Below, in pieces: positions 53,878 through 64,000 of a stretch of DNA of 64,000 nucleotides. The translations under genes were made by a program, and so were the position numbers. The notes beneath the pieces were generated by a model. The model was given only the letters and a program-made list of their open reading frames with translations. It was not told the origin of the DNA and did not search any database. The stretch is taken from the NCBI GenBank assembly GCA_035319735.1, contig DATHCD010000075.1, positions 17,154 to 81,153 on the forward strand. Reading direction: 5' to 3'. This DNA is from Xanthobacteraceae bacterium (GTDB taxonomy: Bacteria > Pseudomonadota > Alphaproteobacteria > Rhizobiales > Xanthobacteraceae). The stretch's first letter is position 1; each line of letters begins with the position of its first letter.

Positions 53878-54411
53878 TCAGTTTACACCGGTTTCGGCGA
53901 GCGGCGCGGCAGGCGGGGCGTTGTCGATGCTTTCGCTGGCCAGCCTGCGCGGCTGCGGACCGTAGTAGTCGCCCATCTGCACGGCCGGCCGCGGCTGCGC
54001 CGTGATCGAGACCAAACGGTCGTACAGGGCTTTCGCCGAAACCGGCTTGATCAGATATTCGTTGACGCCGAGTCGCATGGCCTCGACGACGCGCCAGCGT
54101 TCGCCGTGTCCGCTCAGCATGATGATCGGCACGTCCGGCACCGGGAACACGCCGGGCGAACGCACGATGCGCACAAGTTCGGCGCCGCTCAGGAGTGGCA
54201 TCTCCCAGTCGAGAATCACCACATCGGGACCGACAGTGCGAATTGTGTCCAGGGCGGCGATTCCGTCCGCAGCCTCGTAAATGTCCTTGACCCCGCAATT
54301 GACGAGCAGATTGCGGATCATCTTGCGCATGTATTGGTTGTCGTCGACCACCACGACGCAGAGCGACTGGATCAGGTCCGCAACTTCCTTCTTCGACAGC
54401 TTGGATGGCAT
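53878..54411 (-). CDS. Single-domain CheY-like response regulator with a C-terminal extension
   Basis: Internal ATG 54411. VVVVDDNQYMRKMI, DVVILDWEMP (phospho-acceptor Asp), IIMLSGH, LIKP. Confidence 0.85.
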   Translation of the reverse strand: MPSKLSKKEVADLIQSLCVVVVDDNQYMRKMIRNLLVNCGVKDIYEAADGIAALDTIRTVGPDVVILDWEMPLLSGAELVRIVRSPGVFPVPDVPIIMLSGHGERWRVVEAMRLGVNEYLIKPVSAKALYDRLVSITAQPRPAVQMGDYYGPQPRRLASESIDNAPPAAPLAETGVN

Positions 54412-54620
54412 GACTCGACCGGCAGTGACGGCTAACGGGCGCCCCTCGCGATACCGTCGCATCAGAGCATGAGCGCCTTGCAGGTTGGTAAAGCCAAGGC
54501 CGACAGTTCGAGCGGTCCAGGCCGGCGAACCAAGCCGCGCTCGCCGGAATGGTGAGCGTTCAGTTAATTTCCTGCGCGGCGTCGCTGCGCCTTGCGATGA
54601 AGGCGAAGCGCCCGGCGTGA

Positions 54621-55271
54621 TCAGTTGACCACAACGATTTCACTCAAGTCGTGATCGGATTCCGGCTTATAGGACGAGAGCTTGCGCGGTTCGGGCCCGT
54701 AATAGTCGCCCTTCTTCACCATCCGACGCGGCTTGCAGAGGATGGAGACCAAGCGCGCGAGCAAGGCCTTCGAGGAAACCGGCTTGACGAGAAATTCATT
54801 GACGCCGAGCCGCACCGCTTCAACCACGCGCGAACGCTCGGCATAGGCGGTGAGCATGATGATCGGCACGCTGGGGAGCGGAAAGCTGCCTGGCGAACGA
54901 ACCGTGCGCATGAATTGCCCCCCGTTTGGGCTCGGCATTTCCCAGTCGAGAATGACCACGTCCGGCGTCAGCGTGCAGATCGCTTCGAGGCCGCTGCGGC
55001 CATCGTGGGCCTCGTGGATGTTGCGCACTCCGATCACCTGCAGAAGCGAGCGGGTCACCTTGCGCATGGTGTGTTCGTCGTCGACGATCAGCACCTTGAG
55101 CGCTTCGAGCCGTCTGGCAATTTCCGGTTCCACGACGCGCTCCGCGATCTCGGCGGCGAAGGGTGACGCAATTTCCCCGGGCAATATCGCCACAAACCCT
55201 AAACTTGGCCTGAAATAGATCGATAAAATTTGAACGATCGGCAACGATATTTCCGCCTGCGCGCGAAACAT
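54621..55271 (-). CDS. Single-domain CheY-like response regulator, tandem paralogue with a ~60-aa N-terminal extension
   Basis: Internal ATG 55271. VLIVDDEHTMRKV, DVVILDWEMP, IIMLTAY, LVKP. The C-terminal KKGDYYGPEPRKL parallels QMGDYYGPQPRRL in the neighbour. Confidence 0.8.
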   Translation of the reverse strand: MFRAQAEISLPIVQILSIYFRPSLGFVAILPGEIASPFAAEIAERVVEPEIARRLEALKVLIVDDEHTMRKVTRSLLQVIGVRNIHEAHDGRSGLEAICTLTPDVVILDWEMPSPNGGQFMRTVRSPGSFPLPSVPIIMLTAYAERSRVVEAVRLGVNEFLVKPVSSKALLARLVSILCKPRRMVKKGDYYGPEPRKLSSYKPESDHDLSEIVVVN

Positions 55272-55285
55272 CGAGGCGGGGCCGG

Positions 55286-56770
55286 CTAGGTGCCGGCCTG
55301 CGCCATGAAGCGGTCGAGCATCGCGCGCTGCGCATCGGAAAAGCGCAAGCCGAGCTTCGAGCGGCGCCACAGCACGTCGTCCCCCGTCTGCGCCCATTCC
55401 TTAGCCATCAGGTAACGCACCTCGGCGGCGGTGAGATCGGCGCCGAAGCGCATGCCGAGATCGTCGAGCCGGGTGGCGGACTTCAGTATGTTGTCGACGC
55501 GCGTGCCGTAGGCGGCGATCAGACGCCGCACGTGGTCAGCAGTAAGGAATGGCCACCGCCGCTGCGTGCGTGCGATGAGCGCCGGCGCGCCGTCATAGGT
55601 GAAGTCGCCGCCGGGCAATCGGCTCTCGGCGGTCCATGGTTGCGACGGCGGGAAGAAATGCGAAAGCTTCGCCAGCGCAGCCTCGGCGAGGCGGCGATAG
55701 GTCGTCAGCTTGCCGCCATAGACCGTGAGCAACGGCGCCGCGCGCGAGCGCCGGTCGAGGATGAGGACGTAATCGCGGCCGACGTCCTGCGCCTTGCGGG
55801 TGCCACGCGCGTACAGCGCACGCACACCGGCAAAGGCCCACACCGCGTCCACAGCTGCGATCGCGGTGCGGAAATACTCGTTCACAACGCCGCAGAGATA
55901 GTCCATCTCCTCCGCCGTCGCCATGACCGCGGCGGGATCGCCGGAAAAATTTCGGTCGGTCGTGCCGATGAGGGTGAAGTCGCGCTCGAAAGGGATGGTG
56001 AACACGACCCTGCCGTCGGCCGCCTGCAAGAGGTAGGCGCGTTCATGCTCGTAGAGGCGACGCACGACGATGTGGCTGCCCTTGTCGAGCCGAAGCCGCC
56101 GCGGCGGCGGTTGCCGCAGCACGGTCTCGGCCACCATCCCCACCCAGGGGCCAGCCGCGCTCACCAGCACCCGTGCCGTCACCACCTCGCGCCGGCCCTG
56201 CGCGTTGAGGGTCAACCGCCAACCGTCGGCCCGCTCGGCGCGCACGCAGCGCGTGCGGGTGCGGATCGTCGCGCCGCGCTCGGCGGCATCGACGGCGTTG
56301 AGTACTACAAGGCGCGCATCATCGGCAAAGCAGTCGGAATATTCGTAGCCGTCATGGAAGGCCCGCTTGAGCGGCAGGCCCGCCTCGTCGGTGAGAAGAT
56401 CGACGGCGCGCGAAGGCGGCAGGATTTCCCGCCGGCCGATGCAGTCATAGACGAGAAGGCCGAGCCGAATAAGGAGCGGCGAGCGCCTCGCCGCATCGAG
56501 CGGCAGCACGAAGCGCAGCGGCCGAATGAGGTGCGGCGCCATCCGCAACAGCACCTCGCGTTCGGCGAGCGCGGCGCGCACCAGCCACAACGCGCCGTGC
56601 TCGAGATAGCGCAGCCCGCCGTGAATGAGCTTCGAGGACGCGGCCGACGTGCCTGAGGCGAGGTCGTTCTGCTCGACCAGCACGACCTTGAGGCCGCGCC
56701 CAGCGGCATCGCGGGCAATGCCGACACCATTGATGCCGCCGCCGATGATGGCGAGATCGAAATCGGGCAC
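55286..56770 (-). CDS. glpD: FAD-dependent glycerol-3-phosphate dehydrogenase
   Basis: GTG start preceded by GGGGAG. DLAIIGGGINGVGIARDAAGRGLKVVLVEQNDLASGTSAASSKLIHGGLRYLE is the canonical GlpD N-terminus. 494 aa. Confidence 0.9.
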   Translation of the reverse strand: MPDFDLAIIGGGINGVGIARDAAGRGLKVVLVEQNDLASGTSAASSKLIHGGLRYLEHGALWLVRAALAEREVLLRMAPHLIRPLRFVLPLDAARRSPLLIRLGLLVYDCIGRREILPPSRAVDLLTDEAGLPLKRAFHDGYEYSDCFADDARLVVLNAVDAAERGATIRTRTRCVRAERADGWRLTLNAQGRREVVTARVLVSAAGPWVGMVAETVLRQPPPRRLRLDKGSHIVVRRLYEHERAYLLQAADGRVVFTIPFERDFTLIGTTDRNFSGDPAAVMATAEEMDYLCGVVNEYFRTAIAAVDAVWAFAGVRALYARGTRKAQDVGRDYVLILDRRSRAAPLLTVYGGKLTTYRRLAEAALAKLSHFFPPSQPWTAESRLPGGDFTYDGAPALIARTQRRWPFLTADHVRRLIAAYGTRVDNILKSATRLDDLGMRFGADLTAAEVRYLMAKEWAQTGDDVLWRRSKLGLRFSDAQRAMLDRFMAQAGT

Positions 56771-59543: not shown

Positions 59544-60716
59544 ATGCCGGGTCCATTGGCCGGTCTGCGCGTGCTCGAGCTTGCTCGCATCCTGGCGGGA
59601 CCGTGGGCCGGGCAAATCCTTGCCGATCTTGGCGCCGACGTGATCAAGGTCGAGCGTAAGGGCGTCGGCGACGACACACGCAGCTGGGGGCCGCCTTTCG
59701 TTCCCGCCGCCGACGGCGGTCACCTCGATTCCGCGTATTTCCACGGCACCAATCGCGGCAAGCGCTCGATCGAACTCGATTTCGACAGCGAGGACGGACG
59801 GCGCATCGTCAGGAAGCTCGCCGCCCGCTCCGACGTGGTGATCGAGAACTTCAAGGTCGGCACCCTCGCCAAGTTCGGCTTCGATTATGAAAGTCTGGCG
59901 CGCGACAACCCGCGGCTCGTTTATTGCTCGGTGACCGGCTTCGGCCAGAGCGGCCCAGACGCCGCGCGCCCCGGCTACGATCTCATGGCGCAAGGCATCG
60001 GCGGGATCATGGATCTCACCGGCAATCCCGACGACGAGCCACTGCGGGTCGGCGTGCCCGTGTCCGATCTCTTCACCGGCGTCTATTCGGTGATCGGCAT
60101 CCTCGCGGCGCTGGCACGGCGGGAAAAGACAGGGCGCGGCGGCTATATCGATACCGCGCTCATCGATTCGACCGTCGGCGTTCTCGCCAACCAGGCGCTC
60201 AATTACCTCGTTTCCGGCAAAGTCCCACACCGCATGGGCAATGCGCATCCGAACATCACGCCCTATCAGGTCTTTCCGGTCGCCGACGGCCACATCATCA
60301 TCGCCAGCGGCAACGACAGCCAGTTCGCCAAGCTGTGCGGCGCATTGGGCGAGCCGGAGCTCGCCAAGGAGCCGGCCTATTCGGACAACAAGGCGAGACT
60401 CGCGCACCGCGGCGAGCTCGTCGCGCGCATTAGCGCGTTGACCGCCCGCCTGTCGCGCGCCGAGCTGTTGGACAAACTCGAAGCCGTGGGCGTGCCCGCA
60501 GGCCCGATCAACGATCTCGCCCAGGTCTTTTCCGATCCGCAGGTGATTCACCGCGCCATGCGGCTCGAACTGCCGAGCGCCGCGGCCGCGGGGGCAAAAA
60601 TCCCCGGCGTGCGCACGCCGATCATGCTTGACGGTACGCCGATGGCGGCGGAACGCCCCTCGCCGCGACTCGGCGAGCACACCGCCGAAATCCTACGCGA
60701 GATCGGTGAGGCGTGA
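59544..60716 (+). CDS. Family III (CaiB/BaiF) CoA-transferase
   Basis: ATG 59544 preceded by GGGAG. PLAGLRVLELARILAGPWAGQILADLGADVIKVE...GDDTR, GYDLMAQGIGGIMDLTG. Confidence 0.9.
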   Translation: MPGPLAGLRVLELARILAGPWAGQILADLGADVIKVERKGVGDDTRSWGPPFVPAADGGHLDSAYFHGTNRGKRSIELDFDSEDGRRIVRKLAARSDVVIENFKVGTLAKFGFDYESLARDNPRLVYCSVTGFGQSGPDAARPGYDLMAQGIGGIMDLTGNPDDEPLRVGVPVSDLFTGVYSVIGILAALARREKTGRGGYIDTALIDSTVGVLANQALNYLVSGKVPHRMGNAHPNITPYQVFPVADGHIIIASGNDSQFAKLCGALGEPELAKEPAYSDNKARLAHRGELVARISALTARLSRAELLDKLEAVGVPAGPINDLAQVFSDPQVIHRAMRLELPSAAAAGAKIPGVRTPIMLDGTPMAAERPSPRLGEHTAEILREIGEA

Positions 60717-60772
60717 GCCGAAAGCCGGTGATATTTCGAGGCGATCGAGCGCGCGCCGCGGCCGTTCTTCGT

Positions 60773-61363
60773 CTAGCCGTACAGCTTTCGTGTCGTGCCG
60801 CTGCGCTCGACTTCGCGCGCGGCCCGGTAGGTACGACCGACGAAATCCATCGACGGGTTGGAGACGCCGAACCAGAATTTCTCGCTGATGTAGTGATGGC
60901 GCAGGTGATACTGCTTCTGCCAGCGCCCGAAACGCGTTCGCGGCTGATAGGGAATGTGGGCGACGTAATGCACCCATTCGTAGTGAAGGATCGCCAGCGT
61001 CACGCCGAACATCGCCGAGGCGACAGCGGCCCAGCCGAAGATGAGAGCGAAGGCGAGCGCGGTGACGGCGAAATTGGGGATGAGAAACCAGACCGGCAGA
61101 AACAGAAGATCGAGACGATCGGGCTCGGCGTGATGATCGTAATGGAGCCGATGCTGCAATTTGCGTACAAAGGCAAAACGCGACGGTTCGGCGTGGAAGG
61201 CGTAGCGGTGATAGCCGTATTCGCTGACATAGAACGTCAAGGCGCCGATGGCGACGAATGGTAACGAAAACGGCCAGACCCCGGCAACAAATCCCACGGC
61301 GAGCATCGCGACCCCGAGCGCCAGCCAGACGTTGGAGCCATGCCGCAAGAAGGTGGGGATCAT
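60773..61363 (-). CDS. Fatty-acid hydroxylase / sterol desaturase superfamily membrane protein
   Basis: ATG preceded by GGAGAAGG. Histidine boxes HRYAFH, HRLHYDHH, HYEWVHYVAH and HLRHH. Confidence 0.8.
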   Translation of the reverse strand: MIPTFLRHGSNVWLALGVAMLAVGFVAGVWPFSLPFVAIGALTFYVSEYGYHRYAFHAEPSRFAFVRKLQHRLHYDHHAEPDRLDLLFLPVWFLIPNFAVTALAFALIFGWAAVASAMFGVTLAILHYEWVHYVAHIPYQPRTRFGRWQKQYHLRHHYISEKFWFGVSNPSMDFVGRTYRAAREVERSGTTRKLYG

Positions 61364-61470
61364 CGGCCTTCTCCGAATTCGAACCCGTGCGTCGTAATTG
61401 CTCGTGCCAAATCGGCCGCGCTTTGATCTCTGCAGGCCGGCAGAACGCAGAAAGCTCGTCCGCCAGCCGA

Positions 61471-62073
61471 CTATGCTCGCACGGAATCGGAATTCGCGCC
61501 AGGCGGCGCGTTGCGACGCCGGATCAGTTCAACGATGCTGGCGGCGAAGGCGTCGACCGCAGGCCATGAGGTATATTCGATACGGGCGTCGGGGTCGGTC
61601 GGTCCCCCAGTGAGCAGCATGATGAAGCGGATGATCTGGCGATCGAGCGCGCCATACAGCCGATAGTCGAGGCGTCCGGCAAAGGCGACCGCCACGGCCG
61701 GCTCGAGGCGATGACGCGCAATGGCCTTGCGTAGATAGACATTGCCCGCGATCGTGGTTTTGCCGGCCTTGCGGGCGGTCAGATTGACCGAGGCGAGCGC
61801 CAATGGCGGCGGCGACGGAAGTGCCCGATAGGCCGCCAGGAAACGATCCGCCTCCGGCAAGTGCCGGCCGTAGCGGACGGCAGCAACCACTATCACCGCC
61901 GCGGCGGCAGCGAGCTCGGAAGGCGGAGGCGGTGCCGCCGCAATGTCCCGCGCGGGAGCGGATATTTCGCTCTCCGCCAGGCGACGGGATATGTGCTCCG
62001 CAATACGCCGCGATTGCCCGTCGCGCGTCGCGTAATAGACCGCAGCGATCGTATGTCGATCAACCGTCGACAT
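61471..62073 (-). CDS. hemG: HemG-type (flavodoxin-like, quinone-dependent) protoporphyrinogen IX dehydrogenase
   Basis: [19 protein letters not shown] parallels E. coli ILFSTRDGQTREIA. The HemG-specific loop [23 protein letters not shown] parallels [53 protein letters not shown] parallels [28 protein letters not shown] (E. coli sequence recalled from memory). Confidence 0.75.
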   Translation of the reverse strand: [200 protein letters not shown]

Positions 62074-62120
62074 CGAGCGTCCGAATCCAGCGCACTATGA
62101 CTCCAGCGAGCTAAAGCGGA

Positions 62121-62140
62121 GGCGGCGTCGACACGCCGCC
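62121..62140 (-). terminator. Possible hairpin between the small CXXCH gene and hemG
   Basis: GGCGGCGT-CGAC-ACGCCGCC, an 8-bp stem, about 105 nt downstream of the stop at 62246. On the minus strand it is followed by TCCGCTTT. Confidence 0.3.
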
Positions 62141-62245
62141 GATCACGACGACAATCGGGGCGCCGTGTTTGCTGGTGCGGCTAGCAAGCGTCGAACGCGT
62201 GCGGCGACTCACGACTTCCTGCCGCCCTTAGCTCTCCTTCCGGCG

Positions 62246-62440
62246 TCATTTTTTCAGATTAGACTTGCTCGGCGGTGAGCCCGCATGGCAGTTGCCGCAT
62301 GGCTGGCCCTTCGCAATAGCCGGCGTTGCCTGTGCATTCGGCGTCGCGACGGTGAGCATCGCCGCCGTCAGCAAGACCAGCGTCGCCGTGCCGACGAACC
62401 CACTCACAATCGCCAATTTGATCGTTTTCGCGTATTGCAT
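62246..62440 (-). CDS. Very small exported or anchored protein with a CXXCH haem-c motif (64 aa precursor)
   Basis: Internal ATG 62440 of ORF 62246..62533, preceded by GGAGAATGACA. MQYAKTIKLAIVSGFVGTATLVLLTAAMLTVATPNAQA (signal or anchor), then TPAIAKGQPCGNCHAGSPPSKSNLKK. Confidence 0.55.
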   Translation of the reverse strand: MQYAKTIKLAIVSGFVGTATLVLLTAAMLTVATPNAQATPAIAKGQPCGNCHAGSPPSKSNLKK

Positions 62441-62868
62441 TGTCATTCTCCGATTTATCCGGACCGTTTGCACAAGGCATGTCCCGAAGACGCGTCGGAT
62501 CATAGTCGGATGACCGCGCCAGGCAACATCCAAGAACTCGAAGTCAACCGTTTATGCAGTACGCGGCCGCGGAGAGAACGCAGCACGGGCGAAGCGAGCG
62601 GCACCCGGCGGCAGACGGTGACCGCCCCCTGGAGGCGGCTCAACTGGTGCCGCCACGCCTCACCGCTTCCGCCGAGGCCCGTTTTCCGAACCGATTGACG
62701 GGCAATGACCGTCTGATGACCGGTTTGATACGTATCAATGACCCTCCTCCGGCTCGACGGCTAAGCTGTTTGCGAGATCGGCGGATCCTGGGCGCGGTGG
62801 GGACGCCTGCGTCGATGATTTGGCGTTGTTGAAAGGCCGCGGCCCTTTCCGGCGCCGAAAGAGAAGTG

Positions 62869-64000
62869 ATGGCACGCATGTGGCCGCAGACCCTGAAGTT
62901 CAAGGTCATCCTCTACCTCACCATCGGACTGTCGGTGGCCATGCTGTTGTTCACCGGGGTGGTCGCCTGGTTTCTGCACAATCAAATCCTCGGCAAGGTG
63001 TCCGATCACGTCATGCAGCTCTCGGAAGTGATCACCAAGAGCACGCGTTTCGCCATGCTGCAGAACGAGCCCGCCTATGTCGATCAGATCATCCACGATG
63101 TAGCCGCCCAGGAAAAAATCGACCGGGTGAGAATTCTGAGCAAGGACGGGCGAATCATCCATTCGACCTACGCGCCGGAGATCGGCCAGACGGTGGACGC
63201 CAATGCCGAGGCGTGCTCGCGCTGCCATCAGAGCGGGCGTCCAATCGCGCAGGTTCCCCGAAACGAGCGAACCTGGACGTTCAAAGCACCGAACGGCAAG
63301 CCACTGCTCGGCAGCATGGAGGTGATCCGCAACGAACCGTCCTGCTACAACGCCGCCTGTCATCAGCACAAGAAAGAGACTTCCGTTCTCGGCATTCTCG
63401 ACATCAACTATTCGATCGAGGAAATCGACACCAAGTTGCGCACCAACACGCTGGAGATCGCCGGATTTTCCGTGGGGTTCATCGCGCTGGCTTCGCTGGC
63501 TGTCGGGTTCTTTGTGCACCGTCTGGTCTACCTGCCGCTGCGCGACCTCGAGACCGGAGCGCAACGGCTCTCCGCCGGAAATCTGGACCAGCCGATTCCG
63601 GTGCGCGGTGGCGACGAATTCGGCAGGCTCGCCTGCTCGTTCAACAGCATGACCGACGCCTTGCGTAATTCGCGGGCGGAGCTGCGCGATTCGGCTCATA
63701 CGCTCGAGCAAAAGGTGGAAAAACGGACGCAGGAACTGCGACGCGCGCAGGCGGAAACCATGCGCGGGGAGAAGCTCGCCTCGGTCGGGCTGCTGGCCTC
63801 GGGCGTCGCTCATGAATTGAACAACCCCCTCACCGGCATCCTGACCTTCTCGCATCTGCTGCGCCAGAAAATGCCCGACAACAGCCCCGACGCCGAGGAC
63901 ATGGACCTGGTGATCCGCGAGACCAAACGCTGTGCGGCCATCATCAAGCGGCTGCTCGATTTTGCCCGTGAAAAGCAACCGGAGAAGAAATTTAGCGATA
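62869..64000 (+). CDS. Sensor histidine kinase (partial; continues past the window edge) with a periplasmic domain carrying CXXCH and CX4CH motifs
   Basis: Missing from the ORF track because there is no stop in the window. My translation from ATG 62869: MARMWPQTLKFKVILYLTIGLSVAMLLFTGVVAWFL (TM1), then a ~150-aa domain with ACSRCH (63214..63228) and SCYNAACH (63343..63363), then IAGFSVGFIALASLAVGFFV (TM2), a HAMP domain (LPLRDLETGAQRLSAGNLDQPIPVRGGDEFGRLACSFNSMTDAL), a coiled coil, and the H-box LASGVAHELNNPLTGI. Confidence 0.85.
   Translation, partial: MARMWPQTLKFKVILYLTIGLSVAMLLFTGVVAWFLHNQILGKVSDHVMQLSEVITKSTRFAMLQNEPAYVDQIIHDVAAQEKIDRVRILSKDGRIIHSTYAPEIGQTVDANAEACSRCHQSGRPIAQVPRNERTWTFKAPNGKPLLGSMEVIRNEPSCYNAACHQHKKETSVLGILDINYSIEEIDTKLRTNTLEIAGFSVGFIALASLAVGFFVHRLVYLPLRDLETGAQRLSAGNLDQPIPVRGGDEFGRLACSFNSMTDALRNSRAELRDSAHTLEQKVEKRTQELRRAQAETMRGEKLASVGLLASGVAHELNNPLTGILTFSHLLRQKMPDNSPDAEDMDLVIRETKRCAAIIKRLLDFAREKQPEKKFSD

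Follow-up and report, generated by a model that had tools for sequence, protein, structure and literature searches.

The end of a 64,000-nucleotide stretch of DNA from a Xanthobacteraceae bacterium (assembly GCA_035319735.1, contig DATHCD010000075.1; the whole stretch is called the window below) raises the question of whether a sensor histidine kinase encoded there is a haem protein, and what a very small exported protein encoded next to it might do. The kinase has two Cys/His motifs in its periplasmic domain, and its gene is divergent from a gene of 64 codons, here called the mini-gene, the product of which contains a single CXXCH motif. A first-pass annotation, made from the letters of the window, had proposed a redox- or ligand-sensing haem-c kinase that possibly works with the small protein as a partner peptide. 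The reading that we favour, with moderate confidence, is that of a haem-c sensor kinase acting with an NtrC-type regulator of a Cbc-like operon, in addition to a separately promoted, exported mini-cytochrome that belongs to electron-export chains. It builds on what the analysis demonstrated: the order of the genes, the class of fold, homology at profile level, the conservation of motifs, promoter-like motifs and selection on the coding sequence.

The periplasmic domain was modelled with AlphaFold2 from 33 homologues. The model (mean pLDDT 75) contains a first transmembrane helix (TM1), two helices, five strands and a second transmembrane helix (TM2), with flanking helices at residues 7-64 and 184-235 that enclose an alpha2-beta5 domain. 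Low confidence was confined to the surroundings of the two Cys motifs, which is expected because the cofactor is absent from the model. The Foldseek neighbours were the extracellular domains of WalK, CitA, DctB and DcuS (probability 1.0, TM-score ~0.74), and the domain was assigned to the PDC/sCache fold. A family profile built from 30 diverse sensor domains (A5) was searched against all PDB sequences, and its two best matches were the Geobacter chemoreceptor domains GSU0935 (3B42, E = 1.8e-7) and GSU0582 (3B47, E = 3.4e-5), both solved with covalently bound haem c; these two structures were outside the Foldseek top 50 for the sensor domain. The first-pass annotation had pointed to the Geobacter chemoreceptors and had suggested a profile search and structure prediction of the periplasmic domain. 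The pointer was right, and fold, profile matches and motifs that persist at 30-40% identity all support a haem-c sensor kinase. By these comparisons, the kinase is a member of the Geobacter-type haem-c sensor family, which is known but little studied, and its sensor domain almost certainly carries covalently bound haem.

The two motifs, CSRCH (63214-63228, residues 116-120) and CYNAACH (63343-63363, residues 159-165), were both recovered in the translation where they had been placed (Table 1), and their conservation in relatives, which the first-pass annotation had proposed to examine, was high. The CX4CH-x-H of motif 2 was retained in 86 of 86 close kinases, and its C164 and H165 do not vary among 74 diverse kinases. 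Motif 1, located in a short helix between strands 2 and 3 of the model, was intact in 74 of the 86 close kinases, the His or the entire motif being lost in the other 12. Among 127 diverse representatives (30-40% identical to the query), motif 1 was intact in ~96%, and 111 kept all seven Cys/His positions. In the profile alignment, NEPsCynaaCH of this family pairs with NEqrCq--sCH of 3B42 and 3B47. Because the Geobacter CXXCH thus pairs with motif 2, the CX4CH is best seen as ancestral and the upstream CXXCH as an addition, in agreement with the difference in conservation between the two motifs. As a side observation, 10 of the 12 kinases short of motif 1 (loci L039-L043 and L046-L051) have CHHH and not CHQH at motif 2, possibly a change that compensates for the loss of motif 1.

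The kinase family comprises 1179 representative clusters at 50% identity (E up to 0.001), and names of metagenome-assembled genomes from Planctomycetota occur among the clusters of ten distant kinase representatives. No Pfam or NCBIfam family was found at threshold for the window sensor domain. The MCP sensor model PF21563 was touched by 58 of the 74 diverse family members with a best E of 1.3e-7, and in the members shown individually these matches were below the 27-bit cut-off. PF11845 (Tll0287-like, sCache_haem) was outside the 25 families most matched by the 74 diverse members (E up to 10). The sCache_haem domains resemble the window family in their Cache fold, covalent haem-c motif and frequent fusion to kinases, but the window family has two motifs, and its nearest Pfam family is PF21563, below threshold. 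Compared with GSU0582 and GSU0935, the window kinase likewise has a periplasmic domain of PDC/Cache fold between two transmembrane helices and a haem-attachment motif in the equivalent place, after a conserved NE(P). It differs in that those proteins are chemoreceptors with a CXXCH, whereas here a histidine kinase has a conserved CX4CH plus a second motif, a CXXCH.

The uninterrupted forward frame that had been noted from 62869 to the window end was borne out by translation of 62869-63999 (+), which gave 377 amino acids and no stop. Translation may instead start at the second ATG, at 62878 (MWPQTLKFK), which the N-termini of homologues fit better. The mechanical list of open reading frames (ORFs) contains a 405-amino-acid antisense ORF at 62761-63978 (-). 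The G+C content of the forward frame is 0.80 at third codon positions (GC3) versus 0.40 at second positions (GC2), and the frame has homologues in the hundreds, for which reasons it is the coding one. The high G+C content accounts for the antisense ORF, which the first-pass annotation had correctly called spurious. Extension of the contig, also suggested there, was achieved with peat metagenome contigs (L001-L005) that match the window at 100% identity wherever they overlap it. They supplied the full kinase of 546 amino acids, including the HATPase_c domain, and a sigma-54 response regulator. The kinase layout is transmembrane helix, periplasmic domain, transmembrane helix, HAMP, HisKA and ATPase, and H315 is nearly invariant in the alignment of 74 diverse kinases. 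The metagenome run search recovered the locus in only three peat DNA metagenomes. In several long-read (ENA) contigs, such as L010:10001-13049, the kinase and the regulator are each broken into two ORFs, most likely by frameshift errors, and such split ORFs explain the many truncated kinase "homologues" in the protein search.

The gene that abuts the kinase stop encodes a response regulator of 473 amino acids with Response_reg, Sigma54_activat and HTH_8 domains. A scan with one genome per species found 263 relatives, all of them in metagenome-assembled genomes and all from uncultured organisms. The hosts, which live in peat and groundwater, include Xanthobacteraceae, Hyphomicrobiales, Roseiarcus, Beijerinckiaceae and Betaproteobacteria. 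The kinase-regulator pair adjoins a cytochrome operon in all 58 species loci that have at least 4.5 kb downstream: in 48 of these the operon is convergent and ends beside the regulator, and in the other 10 it is divergent and upstream of the kinase. Besides one or two proteins with receiver domains and a small membrane protein, the operon encodes a cytochrome c of 460 amino acids with nine CXXCH motifs and a C-terminal transmembrane helix, and a dihaem cytochrome b of 215 amino acids that matches PhsC, a thiosulfate reductase subunit (E = 5.5e-33), as well as PF01292. Strong -24/-12 matches (TGGCACGGCGCTTGCT and similar; TGGCAC-N5-TTGC) were located at approximately +5800 and +7400 on the operon strand, and at -300 to -800 instead in the divergent layout. 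From these motif positions, we infer that sigma-54 promoters of the operon would be active.

A similar arrangement has been described in Geobacter sulfurreducens, where BccR (GSU0598) is a sigma-54 activator required for induction of cbcBA at low potential, and where cbcBA consists of a sigma-54 promoter, hypothetical proteins, a receiver protein, the C-terminally anchored multihaem protein CbcA and the "thiosulfate reductase-like" CbcB (10.1101/2021.04.15.440034). The locus tag of GSU0599 is adjacent to that of BccR. GSU0599 has two CX2-4CH motifs in a published list that classes it as a two-component protein (PMC8396549), and it has been described, together with GSU0591, Adeh_2011 and Adeh_3383, as a PAS-like haem sensor with "an additional haem-binding motif" (PMC3831638). 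The likeness to the kinase locus is thus twofold: two CX2-4CH motifs in a PAS-like kinase sensor with a sigma-54 response regulator next door, and operons in the related loci that resemble cbcBA in gene content and order. The differences are that the operon cytochrome c has nine haems here as compared to seven in G. sulfurreducens, that the hosts are Alpha- and Betaproteobacteria of peat and groundwater as opposed to Desulfuromonadota, and that the layout here is mostly convergent.

Upstream of the kinase, the sole perfect TTGAT-N4-ATCAA of the 64-kb window falls between the kinase and the mini-gene; its centre lies 134 bp from the kinase ATG and 291 bp from the mini-gene ATG, upstream of both. 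When up to one mismatch is allowed, 67 of 83 loci have a box between -600 and +100 relative to the called start of the kinase, and 65 of the 148 box matches in 1.4 Mb were within the 500 bp before a kinase start. TTGAT-N4-ATCAA is the FNR/FixK consensus, and because the conserved box corresponds to it, low oxygen probably induces the kinase operon. FNR-like boxes were also found in 34 of 84 distinct upstream regions of mini-genes.

Apart from the mini-gene and the kinase gene, the ATG of which is 428 bp away, no stop-to-stop frame in the window that reaches 50 codons contains a CXXCH motif. The first-pass annotation had described the mini-gene as a 64-codon gene on the minus strand with a ribosome-binding site, a signal peptide or anchor and a remainder of about 26 residues with CGNCH; translation and a GGAG located 7-11 nt ahead of the ATG agreed with all of this. 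Among 68 close homologues, the signal-peptide part is variable and the mature part near-invariant. In 25 distinct DNA versions, the median dN/dS was 0.08 at a dS of 0.95, and 27 of 27 third codon positions vary as compared to 7-8 first and second positions. Because of this low ratio with all third positions varying, the mini-ORF is, by its substitution pattern, a real, translated gene under strong purifying selection, and the conservation of the small ORF that had been in question is thereby settled in its favour, with C48, C51 and H52 invariant in two alignments (A1 and A6). A scan for sigma-70-like promoters gave two matches versus 0.4 expected, which is weak evidence for the match listed in Table 1. 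A sigma-54 promoter was also considered and dropped: only 2 of the 84 distinct upstream regions match, and the window has no match at up to one mismatch.

The best Pfam/NCBIfam match of the mini-protein had an E of 0.04-0.09, far below the cut-offs. Of the features that define a class I cytochrome c, predicted Sec export and the CXXCH are present; the peptide lacks a globular fold of at least ~70 residues and a distal ligand (Met or His), and no cytochrome c family model matches it. As reported in PMC3601427, which cites Braun and Thony-Meyer (2004), the Ccm machinery (System I) needs little beyond CXXCH, and 12-residue peptides were loaded with haem. For this reason, the mini-peptide very likely receives one haem at its CXXCH via the Ccm system. 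It resembles microperoxidases and artificial Ccm-matured CXXCH peptides in being a short exported peptide with one CXXCH, but those are proteolytic or engineered, whereas the mini-family is natural, conserved and under purifying selection.

A search with a profile of three mini-protein subtypes gave at least 2153 clusters at 90% identity, 64-110 residues in length and all devoid of Pfam domains. Their database names are "hypothetical", "exported hypothetical" and occasionally cytochrome c551 or c553. An N-terminal hydrophobic segment is conserved in 183 of 183 members. At the predicted signal-peptidase site, position -1 is Ala in all 183 of these and position -3 is Ala, Ser or Thr in 179 of them. 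The predicted mature size is 26-42 residues, with the window copy as the shortest form, and the spacing between the predicted mature N-terminus and the first Cys is constant, at 9 or 11 residues, in the 183 members. Among the family members listed, 119 of 120 have exactly one CXXCH. The fixed N-terminal distance means that the alpha-amino group could be the sixth haem ligand, as it is in cytochrome f. To our knowledge, haem peptides of 26-42 residues would be far smaller than any characterised cytochrome c, and the searchable literature yielded nothing relevant on natural mini-cytochromes or on CXXCH small proteins in rhizobia. Having no counterpart found in databases or in that literature, the family would be a minimal variant of c-type cytochromes.

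We also compared the genomic contexts of mini-genes. A mini-family gene is located 135-420 bp upstream of the kinase in ~28 of 80 species loci, of which six are divergent, as in the window, and the rest co-oriented. In seven further loci, the mini-gene is ~7-8 kb downstream, past the Cbc-like operon. For the window subtype, only 5 of 53 close metagenomic homologues with enough flanking sequence adjoin a kinase. All six members of other subtypes that were examined on long contigs are in cytochrome-rich clusters, which contain MtrB/PioB porins with MtrA-like cytochromes, CbcL-like fusions of cytochrome b and multihaem domains, NrfD with 4Fe-4S subunits and CcmH/CycH-like proteins; in one case the kinase is included. 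Because members occur in cytochrome clusters that are free of kinases, the mini-protein is better regarded as a component of cytochrome and electron-transfer clusters than as a dedicated kinase partner, and the best reading from these contexts is a low-oxygen-induced small redox component of electron-export chains that is often, though not always, encoded beside the sensor. The first-pass annotation had asked whether homologues conserve both the motif and the position beside such kinases: the CXXCH is invariant, and the position is shared by only part of them.

Several observations on individual loci were made in the course of this comparison. In L027 (15472-15762 and 16338-16634, minus strand), tandem mini-genes of a longer subtype (…CGYCHVNPAGGG…NGHKF) are located immediately upstream of the nonahaem gene, as if they were part of its operon. 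A multihaem gene for 450-700 amino acids takes the place of the mini-gene, ~0.1-2.5 kb upstream of the kinase, in L012, L015, L017, L038, L056, L063, L065, L079 and L086, and a full c551-type monohaem gene does so in the betaproteobacterial loci L069 and L071. Fusions of multihaem cytochrome c and Ni_hydr_CYTB-type cytochrome b (CbcL-like) were found a few kb from mini-genes in L175 (8358-10418) and L176 (6546-7928). Copies of the window subtype often lie amid short unconserved ORFs without a family match (L007:7921-9204 and flanks, L092-L171), and the mini-gene in L007 is ~800 bp downstream of a phage-type integrase gene, which hints at island-like regions for the stand-alone copies.

In the proposed mechanism, low oxygen would act through a regulator of FNR/FixK type that turns on the kinase together with its co-transcribed NtrC-type sigma-54 activator, as the conserved box suggests. 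The sensor would carry one haem at the family-wide CX4CH and a second at the added CXXCH, and through these haems it would sense how reduced the periplasmic electron pool is, or possibly a gas ligand. The signal would pass via TM2 and HAMP to His315, and the phosphorylated regulator would then act at the sigma-54 promoters of the Cbc-like quinol oxidase operon. The mini-gene would be transcribed from a separate promoter, and its product exported by Sec, cleaved to ~26 residues and loaded with one haem by Ccm. The peptide may shuttle electrons or feed the sensor, a dedicated co-sensor role being unnecessary, and its likeliest role is that of a small periplasmic electron carrier or subunit of electron-export chains.

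Among the small electron shuttles in the periplasm of bacteria that respire or oxidise metals are PpcA, CctA/STC and PioC, which have 70-100 residues and trihaem c7, tetrahaem or high-potential iron-sulfur protein (HiPIP) folds. Like them, the mini-protein is predicted to be a small exported redox protein, encoded in or near porin-cytochrome and quinol-oxidase clusters. Unlike them, the mini-peptides have only 26-42 residues and one haem motif. It is more tentative, and in our estimation rather doubtful, to describe the entire family as encoded microperoxidase-like cytochromes c of 26-42 residues with one covalent haem, serving as periplasmic carriers or as a redox signal read by the sensor in extracellular-electron-transfer chains of uncultured Proteobacteria from peat and groundwater.

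Some results weigh against the favoured reading. The window sensor sequence, searched alone, had no match in the PDB, its match to PF21563 was not significant (E = 2.8), and PF11845 gave no match to the window kinase at E up to 1, so that the homology to the Geobacter sensors rests on the family profile and not on the window sequence. The likeness to GSU0599/GSU0598 is drawn from published descriptions. The sigma-54 and FNR sites are motif matches, and no RNA-seq runs containing the locus were found. Furthermore, the only contig that reaches beyond the regulator in the window's own genome, L002, which is identical to the window at 60030-64000 and runs past its end, encodes at positions 3-293, where the contig ends, the C-terminal part of a protein like NarI, the gamma subunit of nitrate reductase (PF02665), and this gene is convergent on the regulator. 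This neighbour occupies the position of the PhsC-like cytochrome b in related genomes and thereby departs from cbcBA. No other fetched locus matches the NarI fragment, and because the gene sits there, the target operon of the window kinase itself is out of view. As for the mini-protein, the mature window peptide has no Met and no second His, hence no evident sixth haem ligand, and most close homologues of the window subtype are in unrelated contexts. Clustering of the neighbours in 80 metagenome loci showed no conserved neighbour of the stand-alone copies.

The NarI-like gene gives weak support to the view that the sensor detects nitric oxide (NO) or a related diatomic gas in place of redox potential, which would tie expression to nitrogen-oxide respiration. 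The sCache_haem domains fused to signalling modules have also been reported to bind NO and not O2 (2026 preprint, PMC12889525). However, PF11845, the family of that preprint, does not match the window family, the flanked loci all pair with the Cbc-like operon and not with nitrogen-oxide enzymes, and a second haem would fit electron exchange better than ligand binding; we therefore regard gas sensing as a minority possibility. The cysteines of the sensor could also form disulfides or a metal site that acts as a redox switch, with no haem at all and with copper or another metal bound to the mini-peptide. Nine of the 12 kinases short of the motif 1 His retain both Cys (CPNCS, CVDCD, CLHCS and similar), and the low AlphaFold confidence at both motifs would agree with such a site. 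Yet in the profile alignment motif 2 falls on the CXXCH of crystal structures with covalent haem, for which reason a metal or thiol switch is unlikely; the His after its second Cys is never lost among the 86 close or the 74 diverse kinases, Sec-exported CXXCH peptides are Ccm substrates that require little else (PMC3601427), and both genes are found amid multihaem cytochrome genes in related genomes. Taken together, a system without haem is improbable.

The small proteins MgrB and SafA modulate other kinases, and a comparable role of the mini-protein, as a dedicated accessory that docks on the sensor and passes on electrons or a conformational signal, would agree with the short distance between the two genes in ~28 species genomes, a linkage that survives gene inversion, and with an FNR box that is common to both genes in the divergent layout. 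This role is unlikely in our view, given that the window subtype so rarely adjoins the kinase, that about half of the 80 kinase loci have no mini-gene nearby, some having a multihaem or c551-type gene there, and that mini-genes occur in Mtr/Pio clusters without a kinase. The partner peptide of the first-pass annotation has thus held up as a conserved gene with an invariant CXXCH, but the partnership was not established, since mini-genes are also found in Mtr/Pio and Cbc-type clusters without the kinase. Finally, the mature part resembles the N-terminal helix and CXXCH of c551-type cytochromes, and the c551-type genes in the same position in the two betaproteobacterial loci could be taken to suggest that the mini-ORF is no more than a functionless N-terminal remnant of a class I cytochrome c gene that has decayed. 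Against this, stop position and length are conserved, dN/dS is ~0.08 with synonymous change saturated, a Shine-Dalgarno-like GGAG precedes most of the mini-genes listed, and the family has thousands of members of 64-85 codons, which makes a relic extremely unlikely. The favoured combination of a haem-c sensor kinase and a separately promoted mini-cytochrome is the one to which the features in Table 1 refer.

Table 1. Features of the kinase and mini-gene locus, in window coordinates.
Feature	Position	Strand	Remarks
HemG-like long-chain flavodoxin gene	61471..62073	-	Downstream of the mini-gene, same strand; PF12724, E 3.4e-29
Candidate mini-cytochrome gene, 64 codons + stop	62246..62440	-	Translation; ends ...AQATPAIAKGQPCGNCHAGSPPSKSNLKK
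Predicted 26-aa mature peptide	62249-62326	-	
C48-G-N-C51-H52, single CXXCH of the mini-protein	62285..62299	-	
Predicted signal peptide	62327-62440	-	
Sigma-70-like promoter match TTGCCT-16-TATGAT	62499..62526	-	~60 bp upstream of the mini-gene; consensus scan
Perfect FNR/FixK-type box TTGATACGTATCAA	62725..62738	.	Pattern scan
Sensor histidine kinase	62869..64000	+	Truncated by the window end after 377 of 546 codons; translation
TM1	~62902-62970	+	
Periplasmic PDC/sCache sensor domain	62980..63444	+	~Residues 38-192; AlphaFold2, Foldseek, family profile
Motif 1, C116-S-R-C119-H120	63214..63228	+	Additional CXXCH, putative haem-c site
Motif 2, C159-YNAA-C164-H165-Q-H167	63343..63369	+	CX4CH, family-wide putative haem-c site
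TM2	~63451-63519	+	
HAMP domain	63532..63666	+	Residues 222-266; PF00672, E 6.6e-16 (Pfam)
HisKA dimerisation/phospho-acceptor domain	63787..63975	+	Residues 307-369; PF00512, E 1.3e-14 (Pfam)
H-box His315	63811-63813	+	AHELNNP motif in translation

The HemG-like gene scored 130.5 bits against the NCBIfam HemG model, as compared to a cut-off of 142. The first-pass annotation had taken its location beyond the mini-gene as a possible coincidence, a view that the comparison does not support: a HemG-like gene is found beside the kinase or the mini-gene in 13 species loci and directly past the mini-gene in five metagenome loci, with examples in L015 (9232-9795) and L025 (741-1334), and in L172 (6980-7456) it follows a distant mini-gene in an MtrB/PioB cluster. 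The adjacency is probably non-random, because it recurs and because an oxygen-independent protoporphyrinogen oxidase suits haem-rich clusters, and the gene may thus be linked in function to haem supply or quinone chemistry. The receiver genes at 53878-54462 and 54621-55397 (-) were considered as part of a Cbc-like operon and dropped, having only ~30% generic similarity to the receiver proteins of that operon; judging from their sequences, the receiver genes at 53878-55397 are probably unrelated to the kinase system.

By this analysis, uncultured Alpha- and Betaproteobacteria of peat and groundwater have a Geobacter-type haem-c sensor and probably a Cbc quinol oxidase under control of the BccR type; in these environments, carbon turnover is shaped by the transfer of electrons to humic substances and iron. 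In this branch of kinases, the conserved putative haem position is a CX4CH and not the canonical CXXCH, and no Pfam model for the haem-c sensor family catches the window kinase. The mini-family, with thousands of members, no name and no database model, is the more interesting part. If haem is indeed attached to the mini-proteins, no smaller natural cytochromes would be known, and the family would then offer a simple system for the study of minimal haem-peptide electron carriers and of substrate recognition by Ccm.

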